Counted from the first letter of the stretch, positions 1 through 14,292 are shown. The stretch: DNA of 64,000 bases from Clostridia bacterium (GCA_017440585.1 JAFSGW010000008.1:3976-67975), one strand, 5' to 3'. The notes: generated from the letters alone by a model not told the origin. Made by a program: numbers and translations.

Positions 1-14
1 AAGAGTTTCCGTAT

Positions 15-974
15 ATGGACGATAATGAAAATATATGGGAGTATTCTTACCGAACTCAAACAAAAATGGAAATGAAGACGACCGCATATAAAGAGTATTT
101 AGGCGAGCACGAAGACCCATTTCCTGTGATGGAATATCAAGATGGAATGATTACTGTTTTAGAACCACCTCCGTTTCCACCTGCAGTTGAGGTTAATATG
201 ATTGCAGGAGATATAATTATCCCTGTGATGATAAGAAGAAAACCTTGCATGGAATACGGAGTGTTAATGTTTGAAACAGTTTCTAATGAGTGTGGTTTTA
301 ATGTTAATATTATAGTTAATGAAAAGCAAGGGACATCATCTTTTCGTATAGATAAAACATTAGATTGTAGTTTGTATGTTCAAGTGCAAAGAGAAAAATG
401 GCTTGAAGAGATACAAAGTAATAGGTTAATATCTATTATGTTAGGAGATGCTGAAATACTTAGGGCAGTTCCAAATGAAAAAGATTTAGATATGCCACTT
501 TTCAAATTAGCGCCATATATTAGATGTTATATTGAAAACTTGCTAACTATAGAACATCATACTGGTTGTAAATTTTCAACCAAGGTAAGTCAAATATCAA
601 TGAAGGATTACAATACTGCAAGAATAATGGCATCTTCTATTGAAGGCAAATGGTACTGCGAAAAGAAAGATTTTGACAATACAATTAGATGTGATTATGA
701 CAAATTACCTAAAGTTTTTTGCAGTGACAAAGATGGTCAAGATGAAATATTGGCTGTTGCTGATATTATTAACATTTCTTTATATGGGCAATGTTTTACT
801 ATTGATAAATATATAATTGGATATAAGCATGCGCGAATTAACAATTTAACTTCTGTTATAAAAAATCGGGACAAGAAGAAAAAGCAAATTCTTTTAACTT
901 TCCGTCCAATTAAGGGACATGATACCTTCTTTAAATATCAGAAATTCGAAGGAATTAGTCTTCTTTCTGAATGA
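15..974 (+). CDS. hypothetical protein on the AT-rich element arm; the N-terminus may extend upstream of the window
   Basis: 319-aa ORF with AT-rich codon usage like the rest of the island. No in-frame stop upstream within the window and no convincing RBS at nt 15. No recognisable motifs. Followed by hairpin repeat copy A. Confidence 0.45.
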   Translation: MDDNENIWEYSYRTQTKMEMKTTAYKEYLGEHEDPFPVMEYQDGMITVLEPPPFPPAVEVNMIAGDIIIPVMIRRKPCMEYGVLMFETVSNECGFNVNIIVNEKQGTSSFRIDKTLDCSLYVQVQREKWLEEIQSNRLISIMLGDAEILRAVPNEKDLDMPLFKLAPYIRCYIENLLTIEHHTGCKFSTKVSQISMKDYNTARIMASSIEGKWYCEKKDFDNTIRCDYDKLPKVFCSDKDGQDEILAVADIINISLYGQCFTIDKYIIGYKHARINNLTSVIKNRDKKKKQILLTFRPIKGHDTFFKYQKFEGISLLSE

Positions 975-987
975 TGCGTATAACAAG

Positions 988-1039
988 AAAAATCCGTATT
1001 ACTTCAAGGAAAATGAGCCAAGGAGAATACGGATTTTAG
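988..1039. repeat. 52-nt imperfect hairpin repeat, copy A (AGAAAAATCCGTATTACTTCAAGG-N-ATGAGCCAAGGAGAATACGGATTT)
   Basis: 11-bp stem AAATCCGTATT/AATACGGATTT around a ~25-nt loop, followed by a T-run. A near-identical copy (2 mismatches) lies at 3402..3452. Confidence 0.8.
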
Positions 1040-1093
1040 TTTTTTAATATGTAGGACTATGTAATAGAGAGCCTGCTATATTAAGGAAAATAA

Positions 1094-1122
1094 TTGACGA
1101 AAAAAGGGGATTGTTATATAAT
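1094..1122 (+). promoter_or_regulatory. sigma-A-type promoter for the two-gene module (TTGACG-17 nt-TATAAT)
   Basis: TTGACG at ~1094, a 17-nt spacer and TATAAT at ~1117, about 33 nt upstream of the RBS GGGGAG and the ATG at 1155. Confidence 0.6.
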
Positions 1123-1154
1123 ATTATTGAGTACATAAGAAAGGGGAGCGAGAT

Positions 1155-2411
1155 ATGATTAACATACCTGCTTCGTTTAAAAATGACCATGAGGATTATA
1201 TAACAGTTCCTGTACTTAAGGAGTTTGTTAAAACACATAATGTAAAGACTAATGTTTCGGAAAAAAGAGAAAATCTCTTTGATAAAATAATAGAATTTGG
1301 TAATGAAAGTGAAGAAAAAGGCGAACTTGTGTTGGACTGGATTGACTATGTTGTACAGGAAGGCATTAAAGATATACAGCTTCACTATGCTCCGTTGCCC
1401 GATAATATGAGTATGTTGGCGAAAGATAATGGGAAATTGTTAAATCATATTTCTGCATATGTTGATAAAAGCGTAAGTAGGCACCTCTGTCAAAATGTTT
1501 ACGGAGAACATTTTGTTCTTATTGATGCTAAAACAGAAAAATCTCGAGCAGGCGAAAAGATAGTATTCATTTTTTGTAAAAGCTTGTATGTTCATGACCC
1601 TAAGAAGAACATTACAAAGAAAATCGATTATCCTGTAATTGCAGAGTACTATAAAAAAGGGGAGTGGCTTCTTGTAAAAGCCAAGCCAAAAAGCAATTTG
1701 TATATTTATGAAAATAAAGAATTTAATCTTGAAAAAGCCCAATTAACAACAACCGAAAAGGAAACAAAGAAGATTGTGGATATGGTTAAAAAGATTTTGT
1801 CTGTTCAAGAGGTGAATGGGCGAGGTGTGGAATATGACTTGAAAAATAGAATATTTCAATTGTTGGATAAATACACTAATACGCCAGAAGAAATAAAGGG
1901 CGTCATGGAAAATGCTGATAGTTCAGTTCTTGAAATATCGAAAAAGATAAGTGACTTATGCTTTGTTGAAGGTAAATGCGGTATTCCTGAAAATATGAAG
2001 AAAGATATTGATGATGATATAAGAAACATATTAGAAAAATATTTATCGATTAATTGGAAGGATAAAGATGTTTTTGTGAAGGATAGGGATGCATATCCAG
2101 TAAAGTTAAGTGCCACAGATGAAGAAGAGTCAAAGGTGGAGCAGACAGCCGCTGCATTAGAACCGTTGCAGACAAAAGCGTTGTTTTTTGATAATAAGAA
2201 AATGTTGTACAAGAATAAGAGTTGTGATGGAATTGTGTTTAGGTGGAGAAGAATCAATCCTATCAATGGTCAAAAACTAATGTTTCCTGTGAAAATGTCG
2301 GCAAATGGTAGAGGTATATGCACGTTTAAATTTACAGAGTATACCGTTAAGGAGGATATTGAAAATGTTATCTTCTCAATTATTGAAACTGGAGAAAATA
2401 CTGAGTCATGA
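1155..2411 (+). CDS. hypothetical 418-aa protein, first gene of the cassette-like module; possible SAP-like helix pair at the N-terminus
   Basis: Strong RBS AAGGGGAG 7 nt before the ATG. No Walker or other catalytic motifs seen. Its 3' end overlaps the downstream gene by 47 nt. Confidence 0.7.
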   Translation: MINIPASFKNDHEDYITVPVLKEFVKTHNVKTNVSEKRENLFDKIIEFGNESEEKGELVLDWIDYVVQEGIKDIQLHYAPLPDNMSMLAKDNGKLLNHISAYVDKSVSRHLCQNVYGEHFVLIDAKTEKSRAGEKIVFIFCKSLYVHDPKKNITKKIDYPVIAEYYKKGEWLLVKAKPKSNLYIYENKEFNLEKAQLTTTEKETKKIVDMVKKILSVQEVNGRGVEYDLKNRIFQLLDKYTNTPEEIKGVMENADSSVLEISKKISDLCFVEGKCGIPENMKKDIDDDIRNILEKYLSINWKDKDVFVKDRDAYPVKLSATDEEESKVEQTAAALEPLQTKALFFDNKKMLYKNKSCDGIVFRWRRINPINGQKLMFPVKMSANGRGICTFKFTEYTVKEDIENVIFSIIETGENTES

Positions 2412-3387
2412 ACAGATTGACAGAATAGAAAGTTATATTACCTCTTTTTCGACAAATACTAAACTCACAGCTTCTAAATTTGCTATGGATATGCAATTTG
2501 ATATTGCACAAGCACGAAAAGTATTAGATGTGTTAGTAGATATTGGAGTGTTCAGGTTTAGCTTTATAGTACGGTGTCCATCATGTGGACTATTACTTGA
2601 ACCTGTAGAAGATATAACAGACATAGAATCACAAATTACTTGTTATGGTTGTGATGTAGAAAGTGATATTAGTACCGATGATGTAGAGGTAATATATACA
2701 TTAAAAGAAGTCCCTTTTGTTGAAGGGCAACAGAGTTATCAAATCGAAAGGTCAGAGACGTCTGTTGTCCTAAACGAAGACTCTCTGACAGCTTTTTTGG
2801 AATTACACGATTATAATTCAAACTTAGTTTTCTACAATCCTACACAATCAGAGGAGGATGTTCTTATAGAAAAATACAACGATATATTCTCTAAACATAA
2901 AACTACAACAGCTAAGGGAAAAACATTGGAAGATTTGGTAGCTACATTGTTCAATACTTGTAAGCATTTTAGAGCGACGACTGGTATGCGACTTCAGCCA
3001 AATCAAATTGACTGTTATGTTAGGAATAAGTTGTTTGCTCCAGGAGTGCCAGGCTTGACGGGTATAGATAGCTTTATGATAGAGTGCAAAAATGAAAAGA
3101 GACCACCTACAGCAACTTATTTCAATAAATTACACAGTGTTTTAAGAGTTGCAGGTAAGCACTTTGGGATTATAGTAAGCAAGGCATCTGCACCTAGTAC
3201 GTTTGTTAAACTTGCAAATCAAATCTTCTTAAGAGATGATATCGTAATCATTTCAATAGATAAGGATGATTTGGAAAACATAATTGTAAATAAAAATAAC
3301 CTTTTAGAATGTATAGGACGAAAGGTTAGCGAGGTAACAGTAAATGCAACAAAAGACTTAGTAGAATTGGGATTATACGATTGCTGA
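2365..3387 (+). CDS. Zn-ribbon + Mrr-type (PD-(D/E)xK) restriction-endonuclease-like domain protein, second gene of the module
   Basis: The track ORF 2305..3387 contains an internal ATG at 2365 with RBS AAGGAGG about 9 nt upstream. CxxC...CxxC lies at residues 71-96. The C-terminal stretch reads LEDLVATLF...NQIDCYV...FMIECKNEK...GIIVSKASAPSTF...IVIISIDKDDL, matching the Mrr_cat/restriction endonuclease family order with D216 and E240-x-K242. Confidence 0.7.
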   Translation: MLSSQLLKLEKILSHEQIDRIESYITSFSTNTKLTASKFAMDMQFDIAQARKVLDVLVDIGVFRFSFIVRCPSCGLLLEPVEDITDIESQITCYGCDVESDISTDDVEVIYTLKEVPFVEGQQSYQIERSETSVVLNEDSLTAFLELHDYNSNLVFYNPTQSEEDVLIEKYNDIFSKHKTTTAKGKTLEDLVATLFNTCKHFRATTGMRLQPNQIDCYVRNKLFAPGVPGLTGIDSFMIECKNEKRPPTATYFNKLHSVLRVAGKHFGIIVSKASAPSTFVKLANQIFLRDDIVIISIDKDDLENIIVNKNNLLECIGRKVSEVTVNATKDLVELGLYDC

Positions 3388-3401
3388 TTAACATGAGTTA
3401 A

Positions 3402-3452
3402 AGAAAAATCCGTATTACTTCAAGGCAGATGAGCCAAGGAGAATACGGATTT
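3402..3452. repeat. 52-nt imperfect hairpin repeat, copy B
   Basis: Near-identical to 988..1039 and lies immediately after the stop of the nuclease-like gene. Confidence 0.8.
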
Positions 3453-3458
3453 GTTATA

Positions 3459-3644
3459 TCATCCTGTCTTTCTTTCTTGATGGCTGTTAAGGATTTCTTC
3501 CAGTAACAATAATTTTTGAGATTTAGGACAGGACAAACTGTTGAGTTGAGCTGTGATTGCTTCAATATGCATTGTTGTAACCCTCTTTTTCAACTCTTCA
3601 ATTTTCTCCGATGTAGTCGGATAATGTACGATTATGTTCATCAC
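3459..3644 (-). CDS. small hypothetical protein (61 aa) downstream of the primase
   Basis: ORF only. The RBS AAAGGAGGG abuts the ATG with poor spacing. Confidence 0.3.
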   Translation of the reverse strand: MMNIIVHYPTTSEKIEELKKRVTTMHIEAITAQLNSLSCPKSQKLLLLEEILNSHQERKTG

Positions 3645-3696
3645 TGCCCTCCTTTCTAAAGTGTATGAACGGAGGATTGTACATTATTTCTACAAA

Positions 3697-3780
3697 GGGT
3701 AATTAGGGTAAATTTCTACCGAAAATTTCTTAATTTTTAAAATTTTCTTTATTTCTTTTAGAGAAAGATTTACCCTAATT
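3697..3780. repeat. long-range inverted repeat (TAGGGTAAATTTCT ... AGAAAGATTTACCCTAA) in the primase 3' intergenic region
   Basis: About 14-nt complementary arms separated by ~50 AT-rich nt, between the primase stop (3799) and the small ORF. Confidence 0.5.
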
Positions 3781-3798
3781 TCACTATACGGAGAAAAA

Positions 3799-5202
3799 TT
3801 AATTTTTTAATCTTTGTCTACGAGAGTTGTTATCAGAATAACAATTTTTCATCCTTTCCACAAATGCATTGACTTCTTGAATGTATTCAGTTTCTACAGT
3901 CAAGTTGTAATAATAATCGCTTGATTTATGGGCTTCTAAGCCATAGTAGTCAAAAAGTATTTTGGCTATATTATGTGACTTTTCAGCATGCAGTTTATTT
4001 TCTCTGCACCAAGCCATATATTCTGCATTAAAATCGGAACGCAAAGTTTTGCCGACTCCAATATTACAATAATGCTCAACGAAAGTGAGTAGAGTATTAT
4101 TGTCAGCAATATACTTAATTCTGTTGTTTTTAATAGATTCACTTTCAGTGAATTTATATCCTCTATCTATAGCATTTTTAAAATACTGTATGCATGCACT
4201 TGCAATAATATCTTTTTCTGTCAGCATTTTTTCTAACAAATATGGATCACGTTTTTCATTAGGAATAATATTTTTGCAATGTATAATATTAAATCTCTCA
4301 TATACATGACCCCCTGTATCTCCGCCAAACTTGGGCAAGTCATTACAGTTATACCAAAGGAAACCTTGGTATTTAAAAGAAAACTGAGGTTTATATTTGA
4401 CATTAGCGAATATTTCATCACCTCCCGTTAACTCTTTGAGAATATTAATTTCTCCAACACGAGCATAGGACATATCGCCACAACCAGCTAAACGTTTATT
4501 GTGTAACGGAGCTGTTCCGAATGTATCGTTAAGATTTTTTAAATCTATAGAGATACTGTTATGCTTGCCAATTAAGGATATAATAAGTTCTCTTAACTGT
4601 GTCTTGCCAGTATTGCCAGGACCTACTAACATTAATAGTTTCTTAAATTTATATCCGGGTACATTACTTAATATAGCACCCATGTATTCAAGCAAAAATT
4701 GCTTAGTCAGTTCGTCATCGCCAATAAGGTCTTGGAGATACTGTTTGAAAACAGGTGCATCATTCAAATCTGCATTATGAATATAATTGCAAGGGATTTG
4801 AATGGTGGACAATATATCCTTGTTGTGAGGCAGAAGCTCATTAGTATCTACTTTTAGAATGCCATTTTTAAAATTAATGATATTTTCGTCTCTGTTAAAA
4901 TGTCTTTCAGCTACGGTAAAGTTGGTTTTAAACTCATCATATACGGCTTCCCAAAGTTTCTTCTTTCTGATTTCAACAGGAATAAATTCCTTTATAAAAG
5001 CTTTGAAATCAGTATCAGAAACAGACATATATACACCATGGCTATTATAGATATAAATACTTGTTGGTGTAATTATTATAGGGTGGTTTTCCTTAATGTG
5101 CATATAAAGCAGTTGTGTATTAATGTGACGTTTGTCGACTTCGTCCCTGAAAATCCAAGAGGCATTTTCAAAATCGATTTTCAAATTAAATTTATTGTAC
5201 AT
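3799..5202 (-). CDS. phage/plasmid primase, P4/D5 family (primase-helicase with NTPase domain)
   Basis: Walker A LVGPGNTGKTQ and D5_N/primase-C-like architecture. Start chosen at the internal ATG 5202 (MYNKF...) with RBS GGAAAGG; the track ORF extends to 5250 without an RBS. Confidence 0.8.
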   Translation of the reverse strand: MYNKFNLKIDFENASWIFRDEVDKRHINTQLLYMHIKENHPIIITPTSIYIYNSHGVYMSVSDTDFKAFIKEFIPVEIRKKKLWEAVYDEFKTNFTVAERHFNRDENIINFKNGILKVDTNELLPHNKDILSTIQIPCNYIHNADLNDAPVFKQYLQDLIGDDELTKQFLLEYMGAILSNVPGYKFKKLLMLVGPGNTGKTQLRELIISLIGKHNSISIDLKNLNDTFGTAPLHNKRLAGCGDMSYARVGEINILKELTGGDEIFANVKYKPQFSFKYQGFLWYNCNDLPKFGGDTGGHVYERFNIIHCKNIIPNEKRDPYLLEKMLTEKDIIASACIQYFKNAIDRGYKFTESESIKNNRIKYIADNNTLLTFVEHYCNIGVGKTLRSDFNAEYMAWCRENKLHAEKSHNIAKILFDYYGLEAHKSSDYYYNLTVETEYIQEVNAFVERMKNCYSDNNSRRQRLKN

Positions 5203-5322
5203 ATGACAACCTTTCCGCATATTGCCAAAGCCTGTACACAACTTTGACAATATGCTTAAAAAAATTTTTTTTTCTTGGGTGCGCCCCCTATATAATAAAT
5301 ACCATATTTTTTATGTGTCAGT

Positions 5323-5351
5323 GCTTGAAAAATTGTATGCAATATGATATA
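5323..5351 (+). promoter_or_regulatory. putative promoter TTGAAA-17-TATACT for the 5385 gene
   Basis: Hexamers with a 17-nt spacer sit ~35 nt upstream of the RBS AAAAGGGGTGG, divergent from the primase. Confidence 0.45.
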
Positions 5352-5384
5352 CTTTAGCTTGCATACAACAAAAGGGGTGGAAAA

Positions 5385-6428
5385 ATGACTGATATTAAGG
5401 GAATTTCTGAACCGTTATATTTCTATTACAGAATAAACACTGTAACGAAGATGGAGACATTTATTTTAAGAGGAAAGCCTATAACTGATGATTTGGAAGA
5501 AATGTATTACTGTTTTCCGAGCGATATTGAAATGCCATTGGGGACTATTTTTTCAATCATTGGTGGGGTAACAGAGAACATCCTACTTTCAATATCAATG
5601 GAAGATACATTAAAGAGAAACGAAGAATATTTAGAGAAATTTGAACAAATAGAAAACATTGAGCTTTCGTTACAGGCTTTTTTGCTTTGTGCAAGTCTAA
5701 ATGCAGATTATAGTGATATTAACTCGAAAGAAAATATTGCTATCTATAATTTAAACAGGTTTATTAGTGAATGTGTGGCTAACTACAACTATGCTACAAA
5801 TGACTATTTAGAAAAAGTTATATTAGCAAATTCTATACCATTCCCGAAATTCGATAGAATTATTGTTGATTATTCTTATCTAAAAAGAAAAGGGGAGTAT
5901 AGTGATGAAGATATGAAAAATTTTTTAGATAATAAAATGCCGTTTCAAAAACAATGGAGTGAATGGGTAGACGGATTAAATATAGAAAAATACGAATACT
6001 ATTCTGTAGATACAGTGAGTGGGTTTTTAGCGACATTATTAAAAGTGATTTTTGATAATCGAAAGGTTATCAATATCTGTGAAAACTGTTGTTGTTATTT
6101 TGTTCCATTAAAAAGAAGTGATGAAAAATATTGTGTAACTAATAAGTATGCAGGTGAACAAGATTGCAAAATGGCAGTAAGAATAGAAAAGCAACGAAAT
6201 AGATTATCTTTGAAGCAAAGCCATATCGACAAAATGGAACGGAGCGTTAGGTCAATGCTATATTATCGTGTAAACAGTGCATTGCCTCGCAACCAAATTT
6301 CGCAAAAAGAATATGGTAAAATTTGCGAAGAGATACATTCATATAAGAAACGAATAGAAGAAGGCTTATGTAGCATTGAAGAATATGAGTTGTTTTTAAA
6401 GAAGTTTTTTAAAAGGAAATACAAATAG
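5385..6428 (+). CDS. hypothetical protein with C-terminal Cys cluster (CENCCCYF...C...C), element-borne
   Basis: 347-aa ORF with a good RBS. Cysteine-rich segment ICENCCCYFVPLKRSDEKYCVTNKYAGEQDC. No family recognised. Confidence 0.6.
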   Translation: MTDIKGISEPLYFYYRINTVTKMETFILRGKPITDDLEEMYYCFPSDIEMPLGTIFSIIGGVTENILLSISMEDTLKRNEEYLEKFEQIENIELSLQAFLLCASLNADYSDINSKENIAIYNLNRFISECVANYNYATNDYLEKVILANSIPFPKFDRIIVDYSYLKRKGEYSDEDMKNFLDNKMPFQKQWSEWVDGLNIEKYEYYSVDTVSGFLATLLKVIFDNRKVINICENCCCYFVPLKRSDEKYCVTNKYAGEQDCKMAVRIEKQRNRLSLKQSHIDKMERSVRSMLYYRVNSALPRNQISQKEYGKICEEIHSYKKRIEEGLCSIEEYELFLKKFFKRKYK

Positions 6429-6429
6429 A

Positions 6430-6472
6430 AAAAGCACATTATCATCGAAAAAAATGATAGTGTGCTTTTTGT
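6430..6472 (+). terminator. rho-independent terminator
   Basis: AAGCACATTATCAT...ATGATAGTGTGCTT hairpin followed by TTTTT. Confidence 0.7.
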
Positions 6473-6588
6473 TTGCTGGTTAAAAGGTTATTTTGTTGTT
6501 AAGGAGCGTTAAGAGGCTCACAGGGGATTTTTAAATACGTACTTGGGAAACGGGTGCGGGGGAAAGATTATTCGCCTTAAAAAGGGTG

Positions 6589-6876
6589 TCAGGAGTTTTT
6601 CTCCTTGTCGAAATAATTAAGAATGTTGCAGATGATGGCAATTTCTTCTTCGGTTAAGCCGTCTAATGATAAGGTTCTTTTGTTGTCAACCTCTAATAAA
6701 TAGTCGGTGGAGATACGGAACAGCTTTGCCATAGCAATGATATGCTTCATGGCAGGGACAGAGGTTTGGTTTTCCCATGCTAATACACTCGTCCTTGCAA
6801 TACCTAACTTATTTGCTAAGTCTGCCTGACTATAATTATATTGTTCTCTTAACATTTTAATGCGTTCATGTATCAT
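6589..6876 (-). CDS. XRE-family HTH transcriptional regulator (Cro/CI-like)
   Basis: MLREQYNYSQADLANKLGIARTSVLAWENQTSVP is a typical HTH_XRE segment. RBS AAAGGGTGGA. Confidence 0.85.
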   Translation of the reverse strand: MIHERIKMLREQYNYSQADLANKLGIARTSVLAWENQTSVPAMKHIIAMAKLFRISTDYLLEVDNKRTLSLDGLTEEEIAIICNILNYFDKEKNS

Positions 6877-6950
6877 TCAAATCCACCCTTTCTTATCATA
6901 ATTGTACACAATGTATTGTTATTTATACACAACATTAAAAGATGTGTATA

Positions 6951-6980
6951 TTGACAAAATAAAAAGGAATGTGTTATTAT
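6951..6980 (+). promoter_or_regulatory. putative promoter TTGACA-18-TATTAT for the SLH-protein gene
   Basis: Hexamers ~30 nt upstream of the ATG at 7012, in the divergent XRE/SLH intergenic region. Confidence 0.4.
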
Positions 6981-7011
6981 TTAGAAAGAAATTAAGAAAG
7001 GTTGTGACTAA

Positions 7012-9636
7012 ATGAAAAAATTTGTATCAATGGCAGTGATTATTTGTATGATGCTTAGTTTGTGTTTAGTGCCTATGGCATCAGGAGTACAGACATTTTG
7101 GGATGTGCCTGAAAGCCATTGGGCATATTCCCATGTAATGAACATGGTTGAAAGAGGTGTTGTATCAGGCTACCCTGACGGAGGATTCCATCCTGATGCA
7201 TACTTAACACGTGCAGAAGCGGCTACAATGATTGCAAAAATTGGAGGAAGTCAGAATTCTATATATTCAGGATTTTATGCTGATGTAACACAGAACGATT
7301 GGTTTTGTAATTATGTTGAAGGTGTAAAGCAGTATTTTAACAGCTATACCGAAAGCAATGGAACGGTAAATTTCCGACCTAATGATTACGCCACAAGAGA
7401 AGATGTAATTGTTGCATTGATGAAGCGAAATTCGAGCCAAGAGCTTTATGAGGTAAAAAGTCCTACAACAGCAATGACATATACAGATTTTGCGAATGTA
7501 AGAAAAGAAAATCAGCCATATTTTGAAGAGGCAATAAACCAAGGAATAGTAACAGGTTATGCAGACGGAACTGTTCGTCCTCACGGTAACTTGACACGTG
7601 CAGAGATGGTTACACTGTTATCTAAAATTTATGGAGTTCCATTGACTCCCGAAGAAATGCTTGCGTCAGGGCAGATGTCATATACTTTTGGGTGTACTTT
7701 AGAGGAATTTATTGAAAGATACAATAATGCCGTAAGTGCAAATTATGACATTCTTTTACAAGAGGATAGTTCTCCAACAAAAGAGGCAGATTTACTTATT
7801 GAAAAAGCCACAAAACCGTCAGATATGTATGAGGGCTGGTACAATTTTATTAACTTCAGTAAAGCTATTGAGTCATTTGACTTTGGTAGCATAAATAATT
7901 GTCAGGGGTATTTCCTTGGTAACGATTCATGGGGAGGGCTTCACTTCTTTGTAATTTGTAAGAACAACAGAGTTGTGTGGATTTCAAGAGAAGGATGGAA
8001 AGCAGAAAATAAATTTAAAACAGCATGTATGATTATTGCTTCCATGGGCACTAGCTATGAGGACGCTTGTAATATCATAAAAATGAAAAAAGAAAATCCC
8101 TACTTTACACGTGTAGGTAATGCTTGTATTGATGTTAGCAACAGCAGTTTTACATTGGCTGATATCAACGAAATTCAAAAAGTACAGTTTGGACTTGCTG
8201 TAGCAAAGCAAGGTGAAGAATTAGGAGCACTTGACATTACTATTGATAAACTCATTGAAAAGTATAATGCTAATATTAAGCAATGTTTTAAATACATAAC
8301 GGTAGATACTAATCAAAAATGGTCAGAGGACTACATGATTAATCCTAATGGTCTTGTAAGAGAAGAACTTCATAAGTACGATGGAAAATTGGTTGAAGTA
8401 AACAGATATTTTGCAGGAACTTTTGTGGCATATACTGACAAACAAAACCGTGTAATAGAAATAATTCCGCATACAGAATACGCCATGGGTAGCATACATG
8501 TTAATGATGACCCTAAGGTAATAGACATTTCAAATGCCGTACATATTTCGATGATTATGGCTTTAGAAAATATATCATTTTCCGAAGCAAAAGTTTATTA
8601 CGAGAAAATGCAGTCGGGAAGAATTACAAAGAGCAGTACTGTTAATTATGACTCGGAAGGATTTAAATCCATATTGGAACCAAAAGCACAACCAGGGACA
8701 ACTACAATTTCCGAAGAAAAAGAATATACACTTCGTAAACTGACAGATACATATGTATACAAGTCGTCTGTAACTCCCAATGGATATTATATGTTAAAAG
8801 TGTCAGGTATGACTGAATTCAAAGATGATATTTATTTCATCTATTACGAAAATCGTTATGATGATGGATTATACGTTTGCAAATTAGATGTTGAAAGTGG
8901 AAAAACAAGTAAGTTTTTTGACCCTTCTAATCTTGAATATGAGGGAGAATATCAAGGTGAAGACGTGGAATTTATGGATTTCTGTGCAACACAGGTGTTT
9001 TATGACAGAGAAAACGATAAGCTCCTTATGGCTGGAAGTTTCCGAGAAGCGGAAGATGAAGACGGAGAAAGAATAAATGTCCAGAACAACACTTTTGTAT
9101 ATGATATAACAAGCGGAAAAGCAAAATTCTGCTGTGAATTCATTGGAGGAAAGCATTATATTTACGGAGTGAAAGACAATTGTGTTATCCTTAGTGGTGG
9201 AGAAAGCATTCAATTGAAAAATGGATATTGGGTGGATATGGACACACAAAAAGTTACCAAGAGTTACTCGGGAGAACATATGATGGAGCATAATGGTGTA
9301 ACATACAGAATGAATTATAATTGTGTTCAGCGTAAATATGATGATAACGATAAGTTTTATGACCTTGTAAATATAATTGCCTTTAACGGAGATGATTATG
9401 AGGACAACTATATTGCTATCGGTGACGGATGTTATTATATTTACGATGCAGAGGGCAGCATTAATGGTTCAATATATAAATACTATGTCGAAGATGAAGA
9501 GGGGATAGAACTTATAACGAATAGTCCCGTAAAAGAGCTCGATGATGTGGATAAAACATTTTTTGCTATCAATGAAAATTGTTTTGTTTTCTACGACCAT
9601 GACACACAAGCATTTTATGCTTTAGAAGCAAATTAA
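7012..9636 (+). CDS. secreted SLH-domain cell-surface protein (signal peptide, 3 SLH repeats, large uncharacterised C-terminal region)
   Basis: N-terminal signal peptide, then three SLH motifs of the form FxDV...HWA...GYPDGxFxP...LTRAE, then ~650 aa without recognised domains. Confidence 0.8.
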   Translation: MKKFVSMAVIICMMLSLCLVPMASGVQTFWDVPESHWAYSHVMNMVERGVVSGYPDGGFHPDAYLTRAEAATMIAKIGGSQNSIYSGFYADVTQNDWFCNYVEGVKQYFNSYTESNGTVNFRPNDYATREDVIVALMKRNSSQELYEVKSPTTAMTYTDFANVRKENQPYFEEAINQGIVTGYADGTVRPHGNLTRAEMVTLLSKIYGVPLTPEEMLASGQMSYTFGCTLEEFIERYNNAVSANYDILLQEDSSPTKEADLLIEKATKPSDMYEGWYNFINFSKAIESFDFGSINNCQGYFLGNDSWGGLHFFVICKNNRVVWISREGWKAENKFKTACMIIASMGTSYEDACNIIKMKKENPYFTRVGNACIDVSNSSFTLADINEIQKVQFGLAVAKQGEELGALDITIDKLIEKYNANIKQCFKYITVDTNQKWSEDYMINPNGLVREELHKYDGKLVEVNRYFAGTFVAYTDKQNRVIEIIPHTEYAMGSIHVNDDPKVIDISNAVHISMIMALENISFSEAKVYYEKMQSGRITKSSTVNYDSEGFKSILEPKAQPGTTTISEEKEYTLRKLTDTYVYKSSVTPNGYYMLKVSGMTEFKDDIYFIYYENRYDDGLYVCKLDVESGKTSKFFDPSNLEYEGEYQGEDVEFMDFCATQVFYDRENDKLLMAGSFREAEDEDGERINVQNNTFVYDITSGKAKFCCEFIGGKHYIYGVKDNCVILSGGESIQLKNGYWVDMDTQKVTKSYSGEHMMEHNGVTYRMNYNCVQRKYDDNDKFYDLVNIIAFNGDDYEDNYIAIGDGCYYIYDAEGSINGSIYKYYVEDEEGIELITNSPVKELDDVDKTFFAINENCFVFYDHDTQAFYALEAN

Positions 9637-9660
9637 CGAAAGAAGAGGAGATAAAGAAAA

Positions 9661-10317
9661 ATGGCAAAGATGGATGAAATTTTAGGTAAAGCAAAAGACA
9701 TGGCAAGTGATGCTATGGAAAAAGCAAAAGAGTATGATTATAAAGGAAAAGCAGAAGAACTGAAAGAAAAGGCAGCAGAAACAGTTGAAAAAGCAAAGGC
9801 TTATGATTATGAGGCGAAGGCAAAAGAGATGTCTGAAACTGTTAAGAATTATGATTATAAGAGCGAAGCTGAAAACATTAGAAATGGTGGCATTAAATAT
9901 TTTTGGAATAAGCATAAGAAGTTAGCAATTATAGTATTAGTTGTATTAATAATTGGTGTTATTAAATTGTTTAGTGGTAATGGTAGTGATGCAATGTTCA
10001 TAAGAAATGATGATACGGCTGTGGACATTGCAATTGACCGTACATATAAAGCAGTAGGCGGAAAAGACCCTCAGTTTGTATCAGCTGACATTATAGAAAG
10101 AAACAAAAATAGTAACGGATATATAATTGAAGTTATATGGAAGGAAGACACAGCATATAGGTTTACAACTAACTTTGTCGTGTTTGTAGGCATCAAGGAT
10201 GATTCTGACAAAAATAACATTCAGTATAGCTACAACTATCTCTTTACACAAAGTGAAAATTATGAAAAAGAATTAGTCCCGAAATTAAAAGCTGAAGTAG
10301 ATTGGGATAATCAGTAA
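9661..10317 (+). CDS. membrane-anchored protein with three N-terminal (A/K)K-x-YDY(K/E) repeats
   Basis: Repeats KAKEYDYKGKAEE / KAKAYDYEAKAKE / VKNYDYKSEAEN, then a TM helix LAIIVLVVLIIGVI, then a ~110-aa extracellular domain. Good RBS AAGAGGAG. Confidence 0.6.
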   Translation: MAKMDEILGKAKDMASDAMEKAKEYDYKGKAEELKEKAAETVEKAKAYDYEAKAKEMSETVKNYDYKSEAENIRNGGIKYFWNKHKKLAIIVLVVLIIGVIKLFSGNGSDAMFIRNDDTAVDIAIDRTYKAVGGKDPQFVSADIIERNKNSNGYIIEVIWKEDTAYRFTTNFVVFVGIKDDSDKNNIQYSYNYLFTQSENYEKELVPKLKAEVDWDNQ

Positions 10318-10370
10318 AAGAGAATAAAATTAATATTTGAATAGCAATAATTGAAAAACACATAAAATAT

Positions 10371-10400
10371 TCCCCTGAATTGTTGGGAGTTCAGGGGGTG
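10371..10400 (+). terminator. hairpin terminator after the 218-aa gene
   Basis: CCCCTGAA TTGTTGGGAG TTCAGGGGG followed by a T-rich tail. Confidence 0.55.
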
Positions 10401-10614
10401 AGACTTTTGCTCAGAATTGTATTGGAAGATGATTCAATAGAAGTAGACGATATGATGGAACAAAAACTTATTGAAATTGCAAATCATATAAATGCGATTA
10501 TCGCTATTGTGTGCGAATATCCGCAATGTGACGAATGTGTTGTTCAGTTGAACGAATGCAGAAAAAAGATTAGAAAGTGTTTTAGATAAAACAAATTAAT
10601 AACTCCCACTAAGA

Positions 10615-10656
10615 GGCTGATATGGGTATAAATGATACCTGTATCAGTCTTTTTTA
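10615..10656 (+). terminator. hairpin plus T6, putative terminator
   Basis: CTGATA...TATCAG stem followed by TCTTTTTT. Confidence 0.45.
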
Positions 10657-10764
10657 ATGGCATTTAAGGAAAGTTTTTGCTTTTTGAGGAATTTAGGAGA
10701 ATAATTAAGTTTGGGAGCCGTTATGATAGTATTGTATCAATCTACTTTTAAGGAGTTATTAATT

Positions 10765-12483
10765 ATGGAAAACAAGAAAATTGCTGTCTATTCAAGAAAG
10801 TCAAAGTTTACTGGCAAAGGAGAAAGTATTGAAAATCAGATTGAATTATGTAAGGCTTATATAAAGCAGAAAAATCCAAGTATTACAGATGAAGATATTG
10901 TTGTGTATGAGGATGAAGGCTATTCGGGGAAGAACACTAACAGACCACAATTTCAGCAGATGATGAAGGATGCGAAAGGAAAAAAGCTGAAAGGAATAGT
11001 TTGTTACAGATTAGACCGTATAAGCAGAAGCGTAAGTGACTTTACACTGCTGATTACAGAGCTTGACGAATACGGAATGAGCTTTGACTCTATTAATGAA
11101 CAGTTTGATACATCCACATCAATGGGAAAAGCCATGATGTATATTTGCTCAATTTTTGCACAGTTGGAAAGGGAAACAATTGCAGAGAGAATAAGGGACA
11201 ATATGCATGAGCTTGCAAAAACGGGCAGATGGCTTGGCGGAAATACTCCCACAGGGTATGAGAGCGAAAAGATTGTAGAGAGAATAAACATAAACGGCAA
11301 AAAGATGGAGGCATTTAAACTTAAAACCATACCCGAAGAAGCGGAAATAATAAAATTGATTTATGGTAAGTTTATTGAATTTAACAGCCTTACAAAGACA
11401 GAGACGTTTTTCTTGCAGAACCATATTAAAACAAAGAACGGAAAAGACTTTACGAGATTTACCATAAGGACAATACTACAAAATCCCGTATATATGATTG
11501 CGGATGAAGATGCCTGGAAATACTTTGAGGATTTGGGAGTTGAAATATACTCGGAAAAAGAAAAGTTTGATGGTGTACATGGCTTAATTGGCTACAATAA
11601 AACCTTGCACAGAACAGGTAAAGCCAATATAGTAAAAAGCATTGACGAATGGATAATTGCAGTAGGCAAGCATAGGGGAATTATATCGGGTGCTGACTGG
11701 GTAAAGGCACAAAGACTTTTGGAGCAGAATGTGTCAAAGGCGTATAGAAAGCCAAGAAGTCATACAGCTTTACTATCGGGATTATTGGTATGTGGGCATT
11801 GTGGTGGCTTTATGCGACCGAAGGTATACAACAAGGATTTTGAGGGCGGAGAAAAAAGATTTGGCTATTTGTGCGAAACTAAGGAAAAGAGCAGAAGACA
11901 TAATTGTGATATGAAAAATCCCAACGGAAATACTTTAGATAGAGCTGTTTGTGAAGAAATAAAGAAGTTGTCCGAGCATGACAGCGAATTTATAACGCAG
12001 TTGGAAAACAGCAAGAAGAAAATTGTATCAAGTAGTGACGAGATAGACATGCAGATTGATGCTTTAGAAAAGAGTATTGGAGAAAAGCAGAAGCAAATTA
12101 ATAAACTTCTTGAAGCTATGGCAAAGGCTACAGGGGAGTTTTCTAATGATTATATAAATCAGTATATAGAAGAAATAGGCGGAGAAATTAAAAAAGCTGA
12201 ACAAAGACTAAAAGAGTTGAAGAGTATGACAAGAGAGCATGAGTTATCAGATAGTGAGTTTGATATATTGAAAGATATTTTAAAATCCTTTGCAAATACC
12301 TTTGAACATATGAGCATTGAGCAAAAGAGAGCTGCCATAAGAACATTTGTTAAAAAGATTGTTTGGGATGGGGAAAATGTGCATATGTATATGTATGGAA
12401 GTGACGAAAATTACAAGTTTGAGGTGGATTTTGACGGCGAAGAAAAAGGAGCCGTTGCGAGGGGGTTGAAAACGAGGTTTTAA
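10765..12483 (+). CDS. large serine recombinase (SpoIVCA-like, resolvase N-domain + recombinase domain + Zn-ribbon + coiled coil)
   Basis: IAVYSRKSK...GESIENQ places the catalytic Ser near the N-terminus. Further segments are GIVCYRLDRISRS and CGHCGGFMRP. Start is the internal ATG 10765 with RBS AAGGAG. The stop TAA shares a base with the ATG of the sigK 3' segment. Confidence 0.9.
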   Translation: MENKKIAVYSRKSKFTGKGESIENQIELCKAYIKQKNPSITDEDIVVYEDEGYSGKNTNRPQFQQMMKDAKGKKLKGIVCYRLDRISRSVSDFTLLITELDEYGMSFDSINEQFDTSTSMGKAMMYICSIFAQLERETIAERIRDNMHELAKTGRWLGGNTPTGYESEKIVERININGKKMEAFKLKTIPEEAEIIKLIYGKFIEFNSLTKTETFFLQNHIKTKNGKDFTRFTIRTILQNPVYMIADEDAWKYFEDLGVEIYSEKEKFDGVHGLIGYNKTLHRTGKANIVKSIDEWIIAVGKHRGIISGADWVKAQRLLEQNVSKAYRKPRSHTALLSGLLVCGHCGGFMRPKVYNKDFEGGEKRFGYLCETKEKSRRHNCDMKNPNGNTLDRAVCEEIKKLSEHDSEFITQLENSKKKIVSSSDEIDMQIDALEKSIGEKQKQINKLLEAMAKATGEFSNDYINQYIEEIGGEIKKAEQRLKELKSMTREHELSDSEFDILKDILKSFANTFEHMSIEQKRAAIRTFVKKIVWDGENVHMYMYGSDENYKFEVDFDGEEKGAVARGLKTRF

Positions 12484-12821
12484 TGTACTTAAGGCATGAG
12501 AAAAAGTTCAATTCCCAGATTTCCCTTTCGGAGCCTATAGGCTTTGACCAGGAGGGTAACGAAATAAGCCTGATGGATATTCTCATAGGAGACGGAGAAG
12601 ATGTATGCGAAAAGGTTGACAGAAGCGAAAAGCTTAAAAAGCTTTTTGAAAAGGTGAGGGCTATTAAGGATGCGAGGGAAAAGGAAATAATATACTTGCG
12701 TTACGGTTTGTCGGGTGGTGAGCCCATGACACAGAAGGAGGTTGCAAAAAAGATGGGAATAAGCCGCTCATATGTGTCAAGAATAGAAAAAAAGGCGATT
12801 TCTCACCTACGTGAAAGTTGA
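12483..12821 (+). CDS. sigK: 3' segment of interrupted sporulation sigma factor gene sigK (regions 3-4 only)
   Basis: EPIGFDQEGNEISLMDIL...GISRSYVSRIEKKAI is closest to B. subtilis SigK (PIGQDKEGNEISLIDVL...GISRSYVSRIEKRAL). Regions 1-2 are missing. In-frame homology (VENEVLM vs IENEILM) extends ~7 codons upstream of the ATG into the recombinase 3' end, so the true junction is near 12455-12465. Confidence 0.85.
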   Translation: MYLRHEKKFNSQISLSEPIGFDQEGNEISLMDILIGDGEDVCEKVDRSEKLKKLFEKVRAIKDAREKEIIYLRYGLSGGEPMTQKEVAKKMGISRSYVSRIEKKAISHLRES

Positions 12822-12873
12822 CATTTAATTTTTAAGAGAGTATAATTAACTGCAAATGACAAGGAGGATTACC

Positions 12874-13812
12874 ATGGAAGGTCTTTTGGTTATTATTGAA
12901 AAGATAGGCTACATCGGTATTATGATACTGATAGGCTTTTTATGTGAAAAAACAGGCTTTGTTAAAAACATTGCAAACTCGGTTTCGGGTATTATTAAAA
13001 ATATTACCTTGCCCTGCTTATTGCTTACCTCGCTTATAAGTAACACCCTTGATGCCTCTAAGGCAAAAAATGGTGCTCTGATTGTGGGAATGGGGTTATG
13101 TGCCATTGTGGTAATGATGCTTCTGGGAAACCTCTGGGGAAAGCTTTTAAAGCTGGACACAGGCAAAAGAGGCATACAGATTGCAATGGGAAGCTTTGGC
13201 AACGTTGCCTTTTTAGGCTACCCTCTCATACAGGCACTTTTGGGACCTGAGGGGCTTTTATATGCAGTTTTTTACAACCTCATAAACGATGGTCTTCTGT
13301 GGAGCTTTGGCTTAAGTGCCATAAGCGGTGAAAAGGGCATAAAGAAGCTTAAAAATATGCTTAACATATGCACTCTTTCCTTTGCGGTGGGGCTTGTGAT
13401 GCTTATTTTGGGGTTAAAGCTTCCTTCCATGCTGCAGGACTCACTTGCATCGGTTGGCAGTGCAACAACACCCCTTTCCATGCTCTTTATAGGTGCAACA
13501 ATGGCACGTGCGGATATTATAAGTGCACTTAAACGCCCTGCGGTTTATCTTTTGACCTTTACAAAGATGGTGTTTATGCCTCTTGTTATTATAGGTGTGC
13601 TTGCGGTATTTTTCAGAGGCGTTATGAACATAACTGCCATGATGACCCTTGTATTGCAGGTTGCAATGCCTGCACAGACAATGGTTGCAATACTTGCAAA
13701 GGAGTACGACCTGGACTCAAAGTACGCGGTGGAGGTTATATTCATAACAACGGTTTTTGCTCTTGTGAGTTTGCCGGTTATATATCAGTTTGCATTTAAC
13801 GTTCTGGGATAA
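12874..13812 (+). CDS. AEC-family (auxin efflux carrier/malate permease-like) transporter
   Basis: Polytopic membrane protein with the AEC pattern. Internal ATG 12874 is preceded by AAGGAGG. Confidence 0.75.
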   Translation: MEGLLVIIEKIGYIGIMILIGFLCEKTGFVKNIANSVSGIIKNITLPCLLLTSLISNTLDASKAKNGALIVGMGLCAIVVMMLLGNLWGKLLKLDTGKRGIQIAMGSFGNVAFLGYPLIQALLGPEGLLYAVFYNLINDGLLWSFGLSAISGEKGIKKLKNMLNICTLSFAVGLVMLILGLKLPSMLQDSLASVGSATTPLSMLFIGATMARADIISALKRPAVYLLTFTKMVFMPLVIIGVLAVFFRGVMNITAMMTLVLQVAMPAQTMVAILAKEYDLDSKYAVEVIFITTVFALVSLPVIYQFAFNVLG

Positions 13813-13823
13813 AGGAGAAAATT

Positions 13824-14276
13824 ATGAAATTATTACTTATAAACGGACCTAATATGAATATGCTGGGTATTCGTCAGCCCGAAATTTACGGGAAGGACAC
13901 CCTTGGGACAATTGAGGAGTTGACAGTCAACAAGGCAAAGGAGCTTGGCTGTGAGATGGACTGCTTTCAGTCAAACCACGAGGGTGCCATAATTGACAAA
14001 ATCCATGAGGCGTACGGAAAATATGACGGCATTGTGATTAACCCTGCGGCGTATACTCACTACAGCTACGCCATTGCAGATGCTTTGGGGGCAGTGGCTA
14101 TCCCTGCAATTGAAATTCACATGTCGGACATTCATTCCCGTGAAAGCTTTCGTGCAAATTCCGTTACCCTTCCTTACTGCATAGGTCAGGTGGCAGGCTA
14201 CGGAAAGGAAAGCTATGCAATGGGCGTGGAAAAACTGGTGGGACACTTAAAGCAATCAGCAATGAGTAATGAGTAA
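13824..14276 (+). CDS. aroQ: type II 3-dehydroquinate dehydratase
   Basis: LLINGPNMNMLGIRQPEIYG...QSNHEG...INPAAYTHYS...IEIHMSDIHSRE is a canonical AroQ sequence. Confidence 0.9.
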   Translation: MKLLLINGPNMNMLGIRQPEIYGKDTLGTIEELTVNKAKELGCEMDCFQSNHEGAIIDKIHEAYGKYDGIVINPAAYTHYSYAIADALGAVAIPAIEIHMSDIHSRESFRANSVTLPYCIGQVAGYGKESYAMGVEKLVGHLKQSAMSNE

Positions 14277-14292
14277 TGAGCAATTAAGGAAA

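Follow-up and report, generated by a model that had tools for sequence, protein, structure and literature searches.

The first part of a 64,000-nt stretch of DNA from an uncultured gut Clostridia bacterium (hereafter the window) carries an isolated ORF for the C-terminal half of the sporulation sigma factor SigK, and the locus thereby raises the question of where the other half lies and what separates the two. A preliminary description read this region as one arm of a skin-like intervening element that splits sigK and whose left end, together with the gene's 5' half, lies beyond the window. That observation is confirmed here by contigs 99.98% identical to the window which carry the 5' half, and its interpretation is supported. 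The interrupting DNA is, with high probability, a non-phage element of the skin class that was inserted in sigK by its own recombinase, would be excised in the mother cell, and splits its own recombinase-helix-turn-helix (HTH) gene upon integration.

The two halves of sigK and the ends of the element

The 112-aa ORF at 12483..12821 (+ strand) covers SigK profile positions 115-223 of 227 and scores 132 bits with TIGR02846 and 137 bits with NF004471 against 92-99 bits with SigE models, making it SigK-specific rather than an unrelated truncated sigma gene, as had been considered. Likeness to SigK starts at 12465 (V-E-N-E-V-L-M), 5' of the ATG at 12483 with which the isolated ORF begins; the sigK 3' half itself, as placed by the NCBIfam SigK models and the splice described below, occupies 12473..12821 (+ strand) and comprises codons 108-223, encoding regions 3-4. 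Within the 64-kb window neither a 5' piece nor a second sigK was found. The left end was taken from near-identical metagenome contigs, molecules other than the window's own, one of which (L011) is 99.98% identical to window positions 1..12411. At 546..866 of L011, 3.09 kb to the left of window position 1, lies a 116-aa SigK N-terminal fragment corresponding to TIGR02846 positions 12-111 and ending ...ATYAARCVE, so that the upstream extension proposed earlier yielded both the fragment and a shared GAAAA core, and the case of an element end with no 5' fragment does not apply.

Measured from core to core the element spans 15,559 bp, in line with the earlier estimate of more than 12.5 kb, window positions 1..12472 holding the right-hand 12,472 bp and the remaining 3,087 bp with attL lying outside to the left (L011 864..3955). 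The 5-nt core GAAAA is found in attR (12468..12472, + strand), in attL (L011 864..868) and in the attB sites of sister genomes, the attR of one related element (L027) having only AA in common with it. Crossover is predicted at the AA dinucleotide at 12471..12472, the last AA also lying on the dyad axis of attP as reconstructed. The element-side (P) arm of attR, the 18-nt GAGCCGTTGCGAGGGGGT (12449..12466, + strand), has an imperfect inverted partner, ACCCACTCATTACGGCTC, just inside attL (L011 ~873..890); 14 of 22 positions of the reconstructed attP arms are complementary, giving the best axis in the region. The same arms recur in an element on contig L104 (15 of 18 positions matching by eye) and within an unsplit gene on contig L102. 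Independently of these repeats, the boundaries are defined by steps in identity to two related loci (L023 and L027), which drops from 0.88-1.00 on the element side to 0.60-0.80 on the host side exactly at the cores. Composition changes as well, the GC content of ~0.32 inside the element (0.30-0.38 over 1..12500) rising to ~0.43 to the right of it (0.41-0.48), which bears out the AT-richness first noted for the left side.

The insertion point falls at nt 321-323 of the 672 nt of sigK, at codons Glu107/Asn108. Splicing the two halves in silico at the common core yields an in-frame SigK of 223 aa, which scores 302 bits with NF004471 (cut-off 252) and 298.2 bits with TIGR02846, marginally under the cut-off of 298.65. 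The same length of 223 aa is found in the closest intact SigK proteins, two of which (P0001 and P0004) match the splice identically over the junction. The spliced protein carries an N-terminal leader, as does B. subtilis pro-sigma-K with its cleavage site. The comparison with sister genomes that had been suggested revealed in two of them (L021 and L022) an uninterrupted 223-aa sigK with the same five genes behind it, representing the empty site in shared synteny. The sporulation gene yunB adjoins the region of the sigK 3' half.

Such an arrangement might be a dead insertion, with sigK permanently inactivated, its pieces decaying and the host either asporogenous or using another copy of the gene. 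At least 16 contigs, drawn from several samples, carry the split form, as does every contig sampled; no intact SigK of at least 90% identity was found in the protein collection, nor an intact allele of the same species; junction scans, made on DNA collections without this species, gave no excision product; and the search for a second sigK covers the 64-kb window alone. Integrated DNA as the only sampled form is, however, what excision confined to the mother cell predicts, and decay is at odds with halves that have remained open and whose in-frame splice has precisely the length of intact relatives. Both halves show dN/dS values of 0.07-0.09 against intact sister genes (0.08-0.09 for the 3' half) and the recombinase 0.04 against L023, the sole population variant in the halves is synonymous, and the native upstream blocks and ribosome-binding site of sigK are kept in split and intact hosts alike. 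As judged from these substitution ratios, the sigK halves and the recombinase are under purifying selection. With related elements occupying the same site in several species, and with yunB alongside, a dead insertion is regarded as most improbable.

The recombinase gene and its detached HTH part

The large serine recombinase (LSR) gene lies at 10765..12483 (+ strand), directly 5' of the sigK 3' half and in the same orientation as originally described, its TAA stop (12481-12483) overlapping the ATG of the sigK ORF. An AAGGAG ribosome-binding site 9 nt 5' of 10765 supports the start, and the 572-aa product of the integrated form contains Resolvase, Recombinase and Zn_ribbon_recom domains (PF00239, 3e-37; PF07508, 5e-17; PF13408, 2e-11), matches PHROG 95 'integrase' (8.8e-114) and has PDB matches that include the catalytic domain of TP901-1 integrase. 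The term 'SpoIVCA-like', under which it was first listed, holds for family and position only, and scores with the NCBIfam equivalog models CcrB, CcrC and XisF were far below their cut-offs. The preliminary description overlooked that the opposite end of the element holds a continuation of this gene.

The final three codons of the 572-aa ORF (T-R-F) and its stop come from sigK, and the ORF supplies the first 569 codons of a gene of 771, which is whole only in the excised circle as reconstructed. In this circle attP lies within the recombinase ORF, which encodes a 771-aa fusion with two C-terminal XRE-type HTH domains; the segment encoded by attP is predicted to be disordered, the rest of the C-terminal part comprising a small beta unit and the tandem XRE-type HTH domains. 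The fusion aligns end to end with a contiguous 773-aa protein (P0190), with 54% identity over 770 aa. The contig encoding the latter (L102) carries element genes on either side of the ORF, the same att arms inside it and no sigK; its ends do not overlap, and its circularity is thus not demonstrable. An independent 10,324-bp element in L104 likewise yields an in-frame fusion, of 761 aa, with 70% identity over 768 aa. Single ORFs spanning both the recombinase and HTH parts were also found in L033, L034, L036 and L037 (672-690 aa) and in about 10 of the best 150 representatives (700-823 aa).

The two parts could nonetheless be separate genes, a 572-aa recombinase and an HTH protein of ~200 aa, that stand in frame by chance. 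Most HTH homologues in databases are called as stand-alone proteins (~139 of 155-217 aa in assemblies), and the 572-aa form already possesses all standard LSR domains. Chance does not readily account for the contiguous ORFs in five contigs and the representative clusters, for an in-frame junction that occurs again in an independent lineage, or for att arms inside the unsplit ORF of L102. The 5' end of the HTH ORF, moreover, offers no start of its own: no start codon occurs inside the element before residue ~47, and the starts chosen by gene callers fall in sigK-derived DNA. A coincidental junction is accordingly considered unlikely, and the HTH part, with a dN/dS of 0.09, is read as the detached end of the recombinase gene. 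The HTH ORF could act as an independent protein while the element is integrated, in which case the fusion need not be the sole functional form.

In the proposed mechanism, the recombinase would have inserted the element at the AA dinucleotide at Glu107/Asn108 of sigK, leaving the gene in two fragments from which sigma-K would not be made. Since the attachment site lies inside the recombinase frame, in a predicted disordered linker, integration would cut off the last ~200 codons with the two XRE-type HTH domains and leave them at the left end, beside the sigK 5' half. Recombination between attL and attR would rejoin the gene for the 223-aa pro-sigma-K, free a 15.6-kb circle and restore the 771-aa recombinase-HTH protein, so that the 771-aa form would belong to the free element only and the 572-aa form to the integrated state only. 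The literature on sigK-type intervening elements compared here describes no attP inside the recombinase ORF and mentions only slight ORF overlaps.

Cargo, spread and the control of excision

At the left edge of the window (1..974, + strand) lie the last 324 codons for an AbiGii-like protein of 443 aa, the gene for which begins 357 nt outside the window on that side and whose full-length counterpart in L011 matches PADLOC AbiGii (4.9e-13) and Pfam AbiGii_2 (7.8e-08). As judged from such matches, the cargo of the element includes defence-type genes. Two overlapping genes follow at 1155..3387 (+ strand), for proteins of 418 aa (1155..2411) and 340 aa (2365..3387), lying between two direct repeats of 52 nt (985..1036 and 3401..3452; family D1, 96% identity). 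This pair has no significant match in Pfam, NCBIfam, PHROG or PADLOC, and the 'nuclease' label once given to it is not borne out. The P4-family primase, XRE protein and SLH protein reported earlier were all recovered. The first, a D5-type helicase-primase (3799..5250, - strand; TIGR01613, 6e-43; D5_N and DUF5906; PHROG 864 DNA primase, 2e-72), is called as 467-483 aa, its start being uncertain. The second is a 95-aa XRE-family HTH protein (6589..6876, - strand; HTH_3, 1.8e-13), a cargo gene or regulator divergent from the gene for the third, an 874-aa secreted cargo protein with SLH domains (7012..9636, + strand; PF00395, 2.9e-26). Further cargo proteins of 347 aa (5385..6428, + strand) and 218 aa (9661..10317, + strand; a charged N-terminal part and then a hydrophobic segment) match no family above threshold, the former having been compared with Pfam, NCBIfam, PHROG and PADLOC.

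A prophage, intact or defective, that uses sigK as attB and excises for lytic growth would also place a recombinase at this site. Functional phages integrating in sigK are known (PhiS63, MMB025), the recombinase matches a phage integrase PHROG and has relatives in phages of Terrisporobacter and C. perfringens (38-40% identity), and the primase and XRE regulators are of phage or plasmid type. However, no virion, packaging or lysis gene, be it for capsid, portal, terminase or tail, was found among the 14 called element proteins (11 compared with PHROGs, the other three with Pfam alone), and 15.6 kb is below the size of tailed phages. Phage records showed no likeness beyond the integrase; in related elements, genes for rolling-circle Rep or a primase accompany surface-protein and defence cargo. 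The word 'prophage-derived' is hence not retained, and the prophage reading is held to be very improbable.

Relatives of the non-phage element set out above are tied to the same target. All eight recombinases of at least 52% identity (L023-L030) adjoin a SigK C-terminal fragment starting at residue 106 and none of those at 44% or less does so, the same sigK site holding related elements in several species. In two other species the recombinase module shares 91–94% identity, against only 71–74% for the sigK 3' halves; the far closer module indicates that the element moved between hosts.

When and in which cell type excision occurs, which protein is the directionality factor and what role the HTH module plays are matters on which we infer rather than observe. 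If B. subtilis and C. difficile are a guide, excision would take place in the sporulating mother cell and would presumably require a directionality factor, for which there are two candidates, neither matching a known family: the detached HTH polypeptide and a 60-aa acidic protein (pI 4.8) encoded directly 5' of the recombinase (10407..10589, + strand). The latter is a candidate by position, likened to CD1234 and GirX, and had no family match in Pfam, PHROG and PADLOC scans. A Shine-Dalgarno sequence, GGGGGTGA, stands 6-7 nt ahead of its TTG start, and L023, L027, L104 and L024 have the small ORF at the same position with the same conserved leader. The leader (10361..10397, + strand) consists of the motif CATAAAATA (10361..10369), judged by eye to be a putative sigma-E/K-type -10 element, and a hairpin formed by CCCCTGAA (10372..10379) and TTCAGGGG (10390..10397), the 3' arm of which overlaps the Shine-Dalgarno sequence; the whole block is near-invariant across lineages with diverged flanks. 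In the interval from the small ORF to the recombinase gene, a terminator-like hairpin with a T-run was read from the sequence at 10617..10655 (+ strand), which a simple consensus terminator scan did not list.

Excision might alternatively serve a reversible switch unrelated to sporulation, occurring in vegetative cells, as in the 'active lysogeny' of comK, or only at host transfer, with sigK as a safe site. The element has clearly moved between species, the C. difficile recombinase is constitutively expressed and the sporulation promoter here is putative. Against this, sigK is needed only late and in the mother cell, a terminal cell; the characterised intervening elements of sigK, spsM and gerE in the literature compared all excise during sporulation; and it is the split form that prevails throughout the sampled DNA. 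A vegetative or transfer-bound switch is therefore thought improbable, and mother-cell excision is the timing adopted here.

Comparison with known elements and integrases

Like skinBs (recombinase SpoIVCA) and skinCd (CD1231, with the directionality factor CD1234), the element is inserted in sigK's coding sequence and has a short common core between imperfect inverted repeats. An LSR gene at the element edge, directly 5' of the sigK 3' half, is shared with skinCd and most of 15 surveyed species. The size is near that of skinCd (14.6 kb), and CD1234 (72 aa, pI 5.5) is, like the 60-aa protein, small, acidic and encoded near the recombinase. In contrast to the skin elements, the cargo is wholly different and not phage-like, and the recombinase ORF runs on for ~200 codons at the far element end; the insertion at nt 321-323 of 672 also differs from the region used by skinCd, skinCt and PhiS63 (nt 427 in C. 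perfringens).

The absence of phage genes and the use of a serine recombinase are shared with gin, a B. cereus element in gerE (GirC/GirX), and with island IV, which lies in sigK of B. cereus biovar anthracis. Gin employs a small directionality factor and has a predicted cleavage at a central AA in a short core, as is predicted here, and its potential mobility between species has been noted, while island IV carries defence-type cargo in the form of a restriction-modification system of type I. The targets differ, being gerE for gin and nt 195 of sigK for island IV, the recombinase of which, unlike the present one, lies beside the 5' fragment in opposite orientation. A split recombinase has been reported for neither.

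Different proteins in the free and integrated states are known from the integration-dependent immunity of mycobacteriophages, in which attP lies inside the repressor gene. There integration shortens, from the 3' end, a repressor gene that stands apart from the integrase, whereas here a repressor-type HTH is fused to the integrase and then separated, and any immunity role for the HTH module would be hypothetical.

The SSV-type ('suicidal') integrases of archaeal viruses and plasmids likewise have attP in the integrase ORF, with an att site translated within the protein and a gene that integration partitions and excision restores. This trait is present here in silico, in three lineages and an unsplit relative. 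SSV-type integrases, however, are tyrosine recombinases, described as so far confined to archaea, which have tRNA genes as their targets and lose activity through the split. The present enzyme is a bacterial serine recombinase with a developmental protein-coding target, and its 572-aa form retains all core domains, so that the catalytic and DNA-binding core stays intact and only the accessory HTH module is detached.

The split sigK gene and its attachment sites

The preliminary description placed a skin-like element inside sigK, the gene for a sporulation sigma factor, an interpretation that is supported by the 5' half of the gene, an in-frame splice of the two halves, and empty sites in sister genomes. 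The 112 aa of the C-terminal half, encoded at window 12483..12821, match SigK models at positions 115-223 of 227, clearly above SigE models, and SigK similarity begins at 12465 in the same frame, reading V-E-N-E-V-L-M. As described, no further piece of sigK lies within the 64-kb window, and GC content steps from 0.30-0.38 left of about 12.5 kb to 0.41-0.48 right of it. At least 16 public contigs encode the 112-aa product; its downstream genes are kept in all ten contigs compared, and the recombinase gene precedes it in every one of these extending far enough upstream. One contig, L006, carries an AT-rich, low-complexity stretch of 36 nt (1..36) in place of the recombinase gene upstream of window 12342, which is probably an assembly artefact.

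The left end was reached by walking leftward with a 418-aa protein of the element, leading to three contigs (L011, L012 and L014), the first of which is 99.98% identical to window 1..12411. The 5' half expected upstream is present in all three, 3.09 kb beyond window position 1, as a 116-aa gene with a Sigma70_r2 domain. Its product corresponds to SigK profile positions 12-111, reading …NTRLATYAARCVE before a divergent tail, K-ATHSLRLF-stop. The junctions attL and attR have the core GAAAA in common, the core-to-core length of the element is 15,559 bp, and joining the halves in silico at GAAAA yields an in-frame SigK of 223 aa that scores 302 bits against NF004471 (cut-off 252), each half by itself scoring about 137-141 bits. 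The predicted attB junction sequence is …GCCGCCAGATGTGTGGAAAACGAGGTTTTAATGTAC…. Among 5.8 billion protein clusters the nearest intact SigK proteins are likewise exactly 223 aa long, and two database proteins (P0001 and P0004) are identical to the spliced SigK across the junction; since no intact SigK in these clusters reaches 90% identity, no empty-site allele of this species is recorded.

Both halves are constrained, with dN/dS of 0.07-0.09 against the intact sister genes, and the three substitutions in the only sampled population variant (L009) are all synonymous. SigK retains an N-terminal leader resembling that of pro-sigma-K, and the upstream blocks and ribosome-binding site of sigK are conserved in hosts with split and with intact genes. 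By analogy with known sigK elements, the element is predicted to be excised in the mother cell.

Two sister genomes (L021 and L022; SigK 85% identical) have an uninterrupted sigK with GAAAA at the same codons, followed, as in the window, by Mem_trans, aroQ, yunB, HPr and GH2. The boundaries are further delimited by other Clostridia metagenome-assembled genomes, L023 and L027, whose recombinases are 97% and 94% identical to that of the window at the protein level: at both junctions, DNA identity to the window lies at 0.88-1.00 within the element and falls to 0.60-0.80 in the host flank, the step coinciding exactly with the core. The reconstructed attP, with the predicted junction …GCGAGGGGGTTGAAAAAGCGACCCACTCATTACGG…, has 18-nt imperfect inverted arms (GAGCCGTTGCGAGGGGGT / ACCCACTCATTACGGCTC) whose best dyad axis is the last AA of the core. 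This dinucleotide, at window 12471..12472, is the predicted site of crossover, and the attR of L027, which has only the final AA of the core in common, is consistent with this assignment. Exact scans of viral contigs and JGI metagenomes for the attP junction returned no match, nor did an exact scan for the host-side half that attB and attR would both match; because the species is absent from the scanned collections, these nulls carry no information on excision.

A recombinase gene divided by its own attachment site

The large serine recombinase described as ending at 12483 carries Resolvase, Recombinase and Zn_ribbon_recom domains and matches the PHROG 95 integrase, its start at 10765 being backed by an AAGGAG ribosome-binding site to give 572 aa. 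The reading frame runs across attR, such that sigK DNA supplies the last three codons and the stop. In the reconstructed circle it continues instead into the ORF at the left end of the element (…GLK-KRPTHYGSFEPKEG…), producing a 771-aa fusion whose C-terminus contains two XRE-type helix-turn-helix (HTH) domains.

Five lines of evidence argue, from sequence comparison, that this in-frame junction is not coincidental. A contiguous 773-aa database protein, P0190, aligns end to end with the fusion at 54% identity over 770 aa, and its contig (L102) has element genes on both sides, no sigK, and the same att arms within the ORF, although its ends do not overlap and it is not demonstrably circular. 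From the independent element in L104, an in-frame fusion of 761 aa can be reconstructed, with 70% identity over 768 aa. In L033, L034, L036 and L037, which are more distant relatives, both parts form single ORFs of 672-690 aa. Purifying selection acts on the HTH part, with dN/dS of 0.09 against L023 (0.04 for the recombinase core). Finally, the 5' end of the HTH part lacks its own start codon, and gene callers resort to an ATG or TTG inside sigK-derived DNA.

About 10 of the best 150 representatives from 1.84 billion proteins are 700-823 aa long and match both parts. Assemblies are dominated by the split state, with about 139 stand-alone HTH homologues called and fusions rare, and none of the phage or plasmid records searched carries the full-length fusion. 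Structure prediction gives a disordered attP-encoded segment, the rest of the detached part being modelled as a small beta unit with tandem SinR / cI / ImmR-like domains after it; a fold search with the HTH part returned generic XRE-domain matches only (E >= 3.5e-3), resembling no known directionality factor. In a 321-aa protein, P0301, a Sigma70_r2 domain and the HTH part lie within one ORF; in this lineage the detached HTH apparently continues the reading frame of the sigK 5' half, and the integrated state thereby encodes a SigK(N)-HTH chimera. Because attP lies inside the recombinase gene, the free and integrated states of the element would encode different recombinase isoforms.

Variable cargo and spread between species

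From left to right the element encodes the detached HTH ORF; a KAP-family P-loop NTPase (L011 1540..3312; PADLOC candidate system PDC-S49, 1.8e-50); a 50-aa ORF; an AbiGii-like protein (L011 3598..4929, running into window 1..974; 4.9e-13) for which no AbiGi partner was recognised; a two-gene module of 418 and 340 aa with no assigned function, flanked by 52-nt repeats; a 60-aa ORF; a P4-type primase; a 347-aa protein with no assigned function; an XRE regulator; an SLH protein; a 218-aa protein, again with no assigned function; a small 60-aa protein; and, at the right end, the recombinase. The window ORF 15..974, for which an exact look-up was empty, is an internal fragment of the 443-aa AbiGii-like gene starting left of the window. 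Profile searches bore out the P4-family primase, the XRE regulator and the SLH protein. The 'nuclease' label attached to the 418-aa/340-aa pair found no profile support even at E<=1, and a D...E-C-K stretch noticed by eye in the pair was not taken as nuclease evidence. 'Prophage-derived' is equally unsupported, because no element gene matches capsid, terminase, tail or lysis families. The repeats at 985..1036 and 3401..3452 are direct, 96% identical and exactly bracket the pair; both copies are hairpins in their own right (AAATCCGTATT…AATACGGATTT), and they resemble the edge of a cassette or a terminator that was duplicated.

Other copies of the element are smaller (10.4 kb in L023, 10.3 kb in L104) and differ in cargo, the variable genes including Fic, rolling-circle Rep, and LRR or cohesin/dockerin surface proteins. 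The position before the small ORF and recombinase repeatedly holds a large gene for a secreted or surface protein: SLH in the window (within 6589..9636), LRR_5 in L104 (13139..16189), Big_2/cohesin/dockerin in L103 (9902..13069) and a secreted protein in L023 (12296..15658). It looks like a swappable cargo slot. In the window and L103 the surface-protein gene directly follows a divergent XRE gene. The population variant L009 (1..1290) is 97.7% identical over small ORF, recombinase and sigK, with different cargo left of the small ORF. In L022, tRNA-Met and the intact sigK are separated by an island of about 4.3 kb, where an XRE gene with its divergent promoter (1028..1445) is 92% identical to window 6576..6995, host genes being 83-86% identical; the large genes after this XRE gene differ from those of the element.

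In a survey of 79 recombinase loci from species-representative genomes, all recombinases at least 52% identical to that of the window adjoin a SigK C-terminal fragment starting at residue 106; several of those at 45-48% identity, and none at 44% or below, are near sigK halves. Recombinase gene DNA is 91-94% identical between the window and L023/L027, compared with 71-74% for the neighbouring sigK 3' half and about 76% for downstream host genes. As the recombinase is more conserved than sigK and host genes, the element has spread between species after these had diverged, and judged by these sequence comparisons the clade is mobile among gut Clostridia species, always landing at the same sigK codon. 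L023 also contains, downstream of a complete sigK 3' half, a stretch (12296..16212) in which a gene for a repeat-rich secreted protein of 1,120 aa is followed by a second small-ORF region (96.7% identity to window 10356..10714) and then by an ORF in which recombinase codons 1-14 run straight into SigK residues ~164-222 (MENKKIAVYSRKSK|LFEKVKGIKD…). This chimeric ORF is what a deletion has left of a second recombinase/sigK junction, which suggests an earlier tandem or nested insertion.

Regulation and comparison with known systems

Directly upstream of the recombinase, the small ORF (10407..10589) encodes an acidic protein of 60 aa (pI 4.8) with a strong Shine-Dalgarno sequence and a conserved leader, an arrangement found in every lineage with recombinase identity of at least 75%; a hairpin and T-run separate the two genes. 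In position and size the protein is like the directionality factors CD1234 and GirX, and it is by this analogy a candidate for the same role. The leader hairpin shows no convincing compensatory changes and is better read as a Shine-Dalgarno-occluding or protein-binding site than taken for an established RNA structure. A sigma-70 consensus scan near the recombinase gave no more matches than shuffled sequence, and sigma-E/K-like motifs there, judged by eye, are not claimed as promoter elements. A perfect sigma-70 promoter (TTGACA, 17 nt, TATAAT; 12/12) lies at window 12818..12846, its -35 hexamer overlapping the sigK stop, and presumably serves the downstream Mem_trans (auxin-efflux-carrier family) gene. 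Rfam has no match in the window and, upstream of the sigK 5' half, matches tRNA-Met (CAT) only, about 460 nt away in the L011 84..545 region; the intervening GC-rich stretch of about 400 nt, itself without an Rfam match, is partly repeated several times in L021.

No plus-strand terminator is found between the 5' fragment of sigK and the HTH ORF, so transcription from the sigK promoter could reach the latter. An unlikely but far-reaching reading is that the reciprocal split is itself a regulatory device, in which the sigK promoter drives the detached HTH and the HTH triggers excision. With integration, the double-HTH module would come to lie immediately after the 5' fragment of sigK, no terminator intervening, so that the mother-cell promoter of the host would transcribe it exactly when sigma-K is needed; the HTH polypeptide would then trigger excision, either acting as a directionality factor or lifting repression of the small ORF and recombinase, while in the free element the recombinase-fused HTH would favour integration or repress element genes. 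If true, the directionality control of a serine integrase would be connected directly to a developmental promoter of the host.

The sigK-intervening elements are a textbook developmentally programmed DNA rearrangement of which few examples have been dissected, and they are mostly regarded as immobile prophage relics. The clade described here is still moving, with swappable surface-protein and anti-phage cargo. The isoform difference between free and integrated states would offer a testable handle on the control of directionality and timing, and the elements supply natural 46-nt att sites for an integrase family targeting a conserved gene.

Split sigK genes have been documented in 15 species, in elements of 2.6 to 48 kb with only the recombinase in common, its gene lying 'usually immediately upstream of spoIIIC'; skinCd requires the recombinase CD1231 and the sigma-E/SpoIIID-dependent directionality factor CD1234. 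Whereas PhiS63, skinCd and skinCt insert near sigK nt 427 and island IV at nt 195, the element here inserts at nt 321-323. Its closest described analogues are the non-phage intervening elements gin and island IV of B. cereus bv. anthracis. A slight overlap of recombinase and sigK-fragment ORFs has already been noted; no description was found in the literature of a recombinase with its C-terminal ~200 codons displaced to the opposite element end. As a skin-like element it is of a kind already well known, and what appears new, on the sequence evidence, is a recombinase gene split and restored together with sigK, along with recent interspecies spread. An attP inside the integrase gene is described as so far restricted to archaeal tyrosine integrases (Badel et al. 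2020), whereas here a bacterial serine integrase has attP in its own gene.
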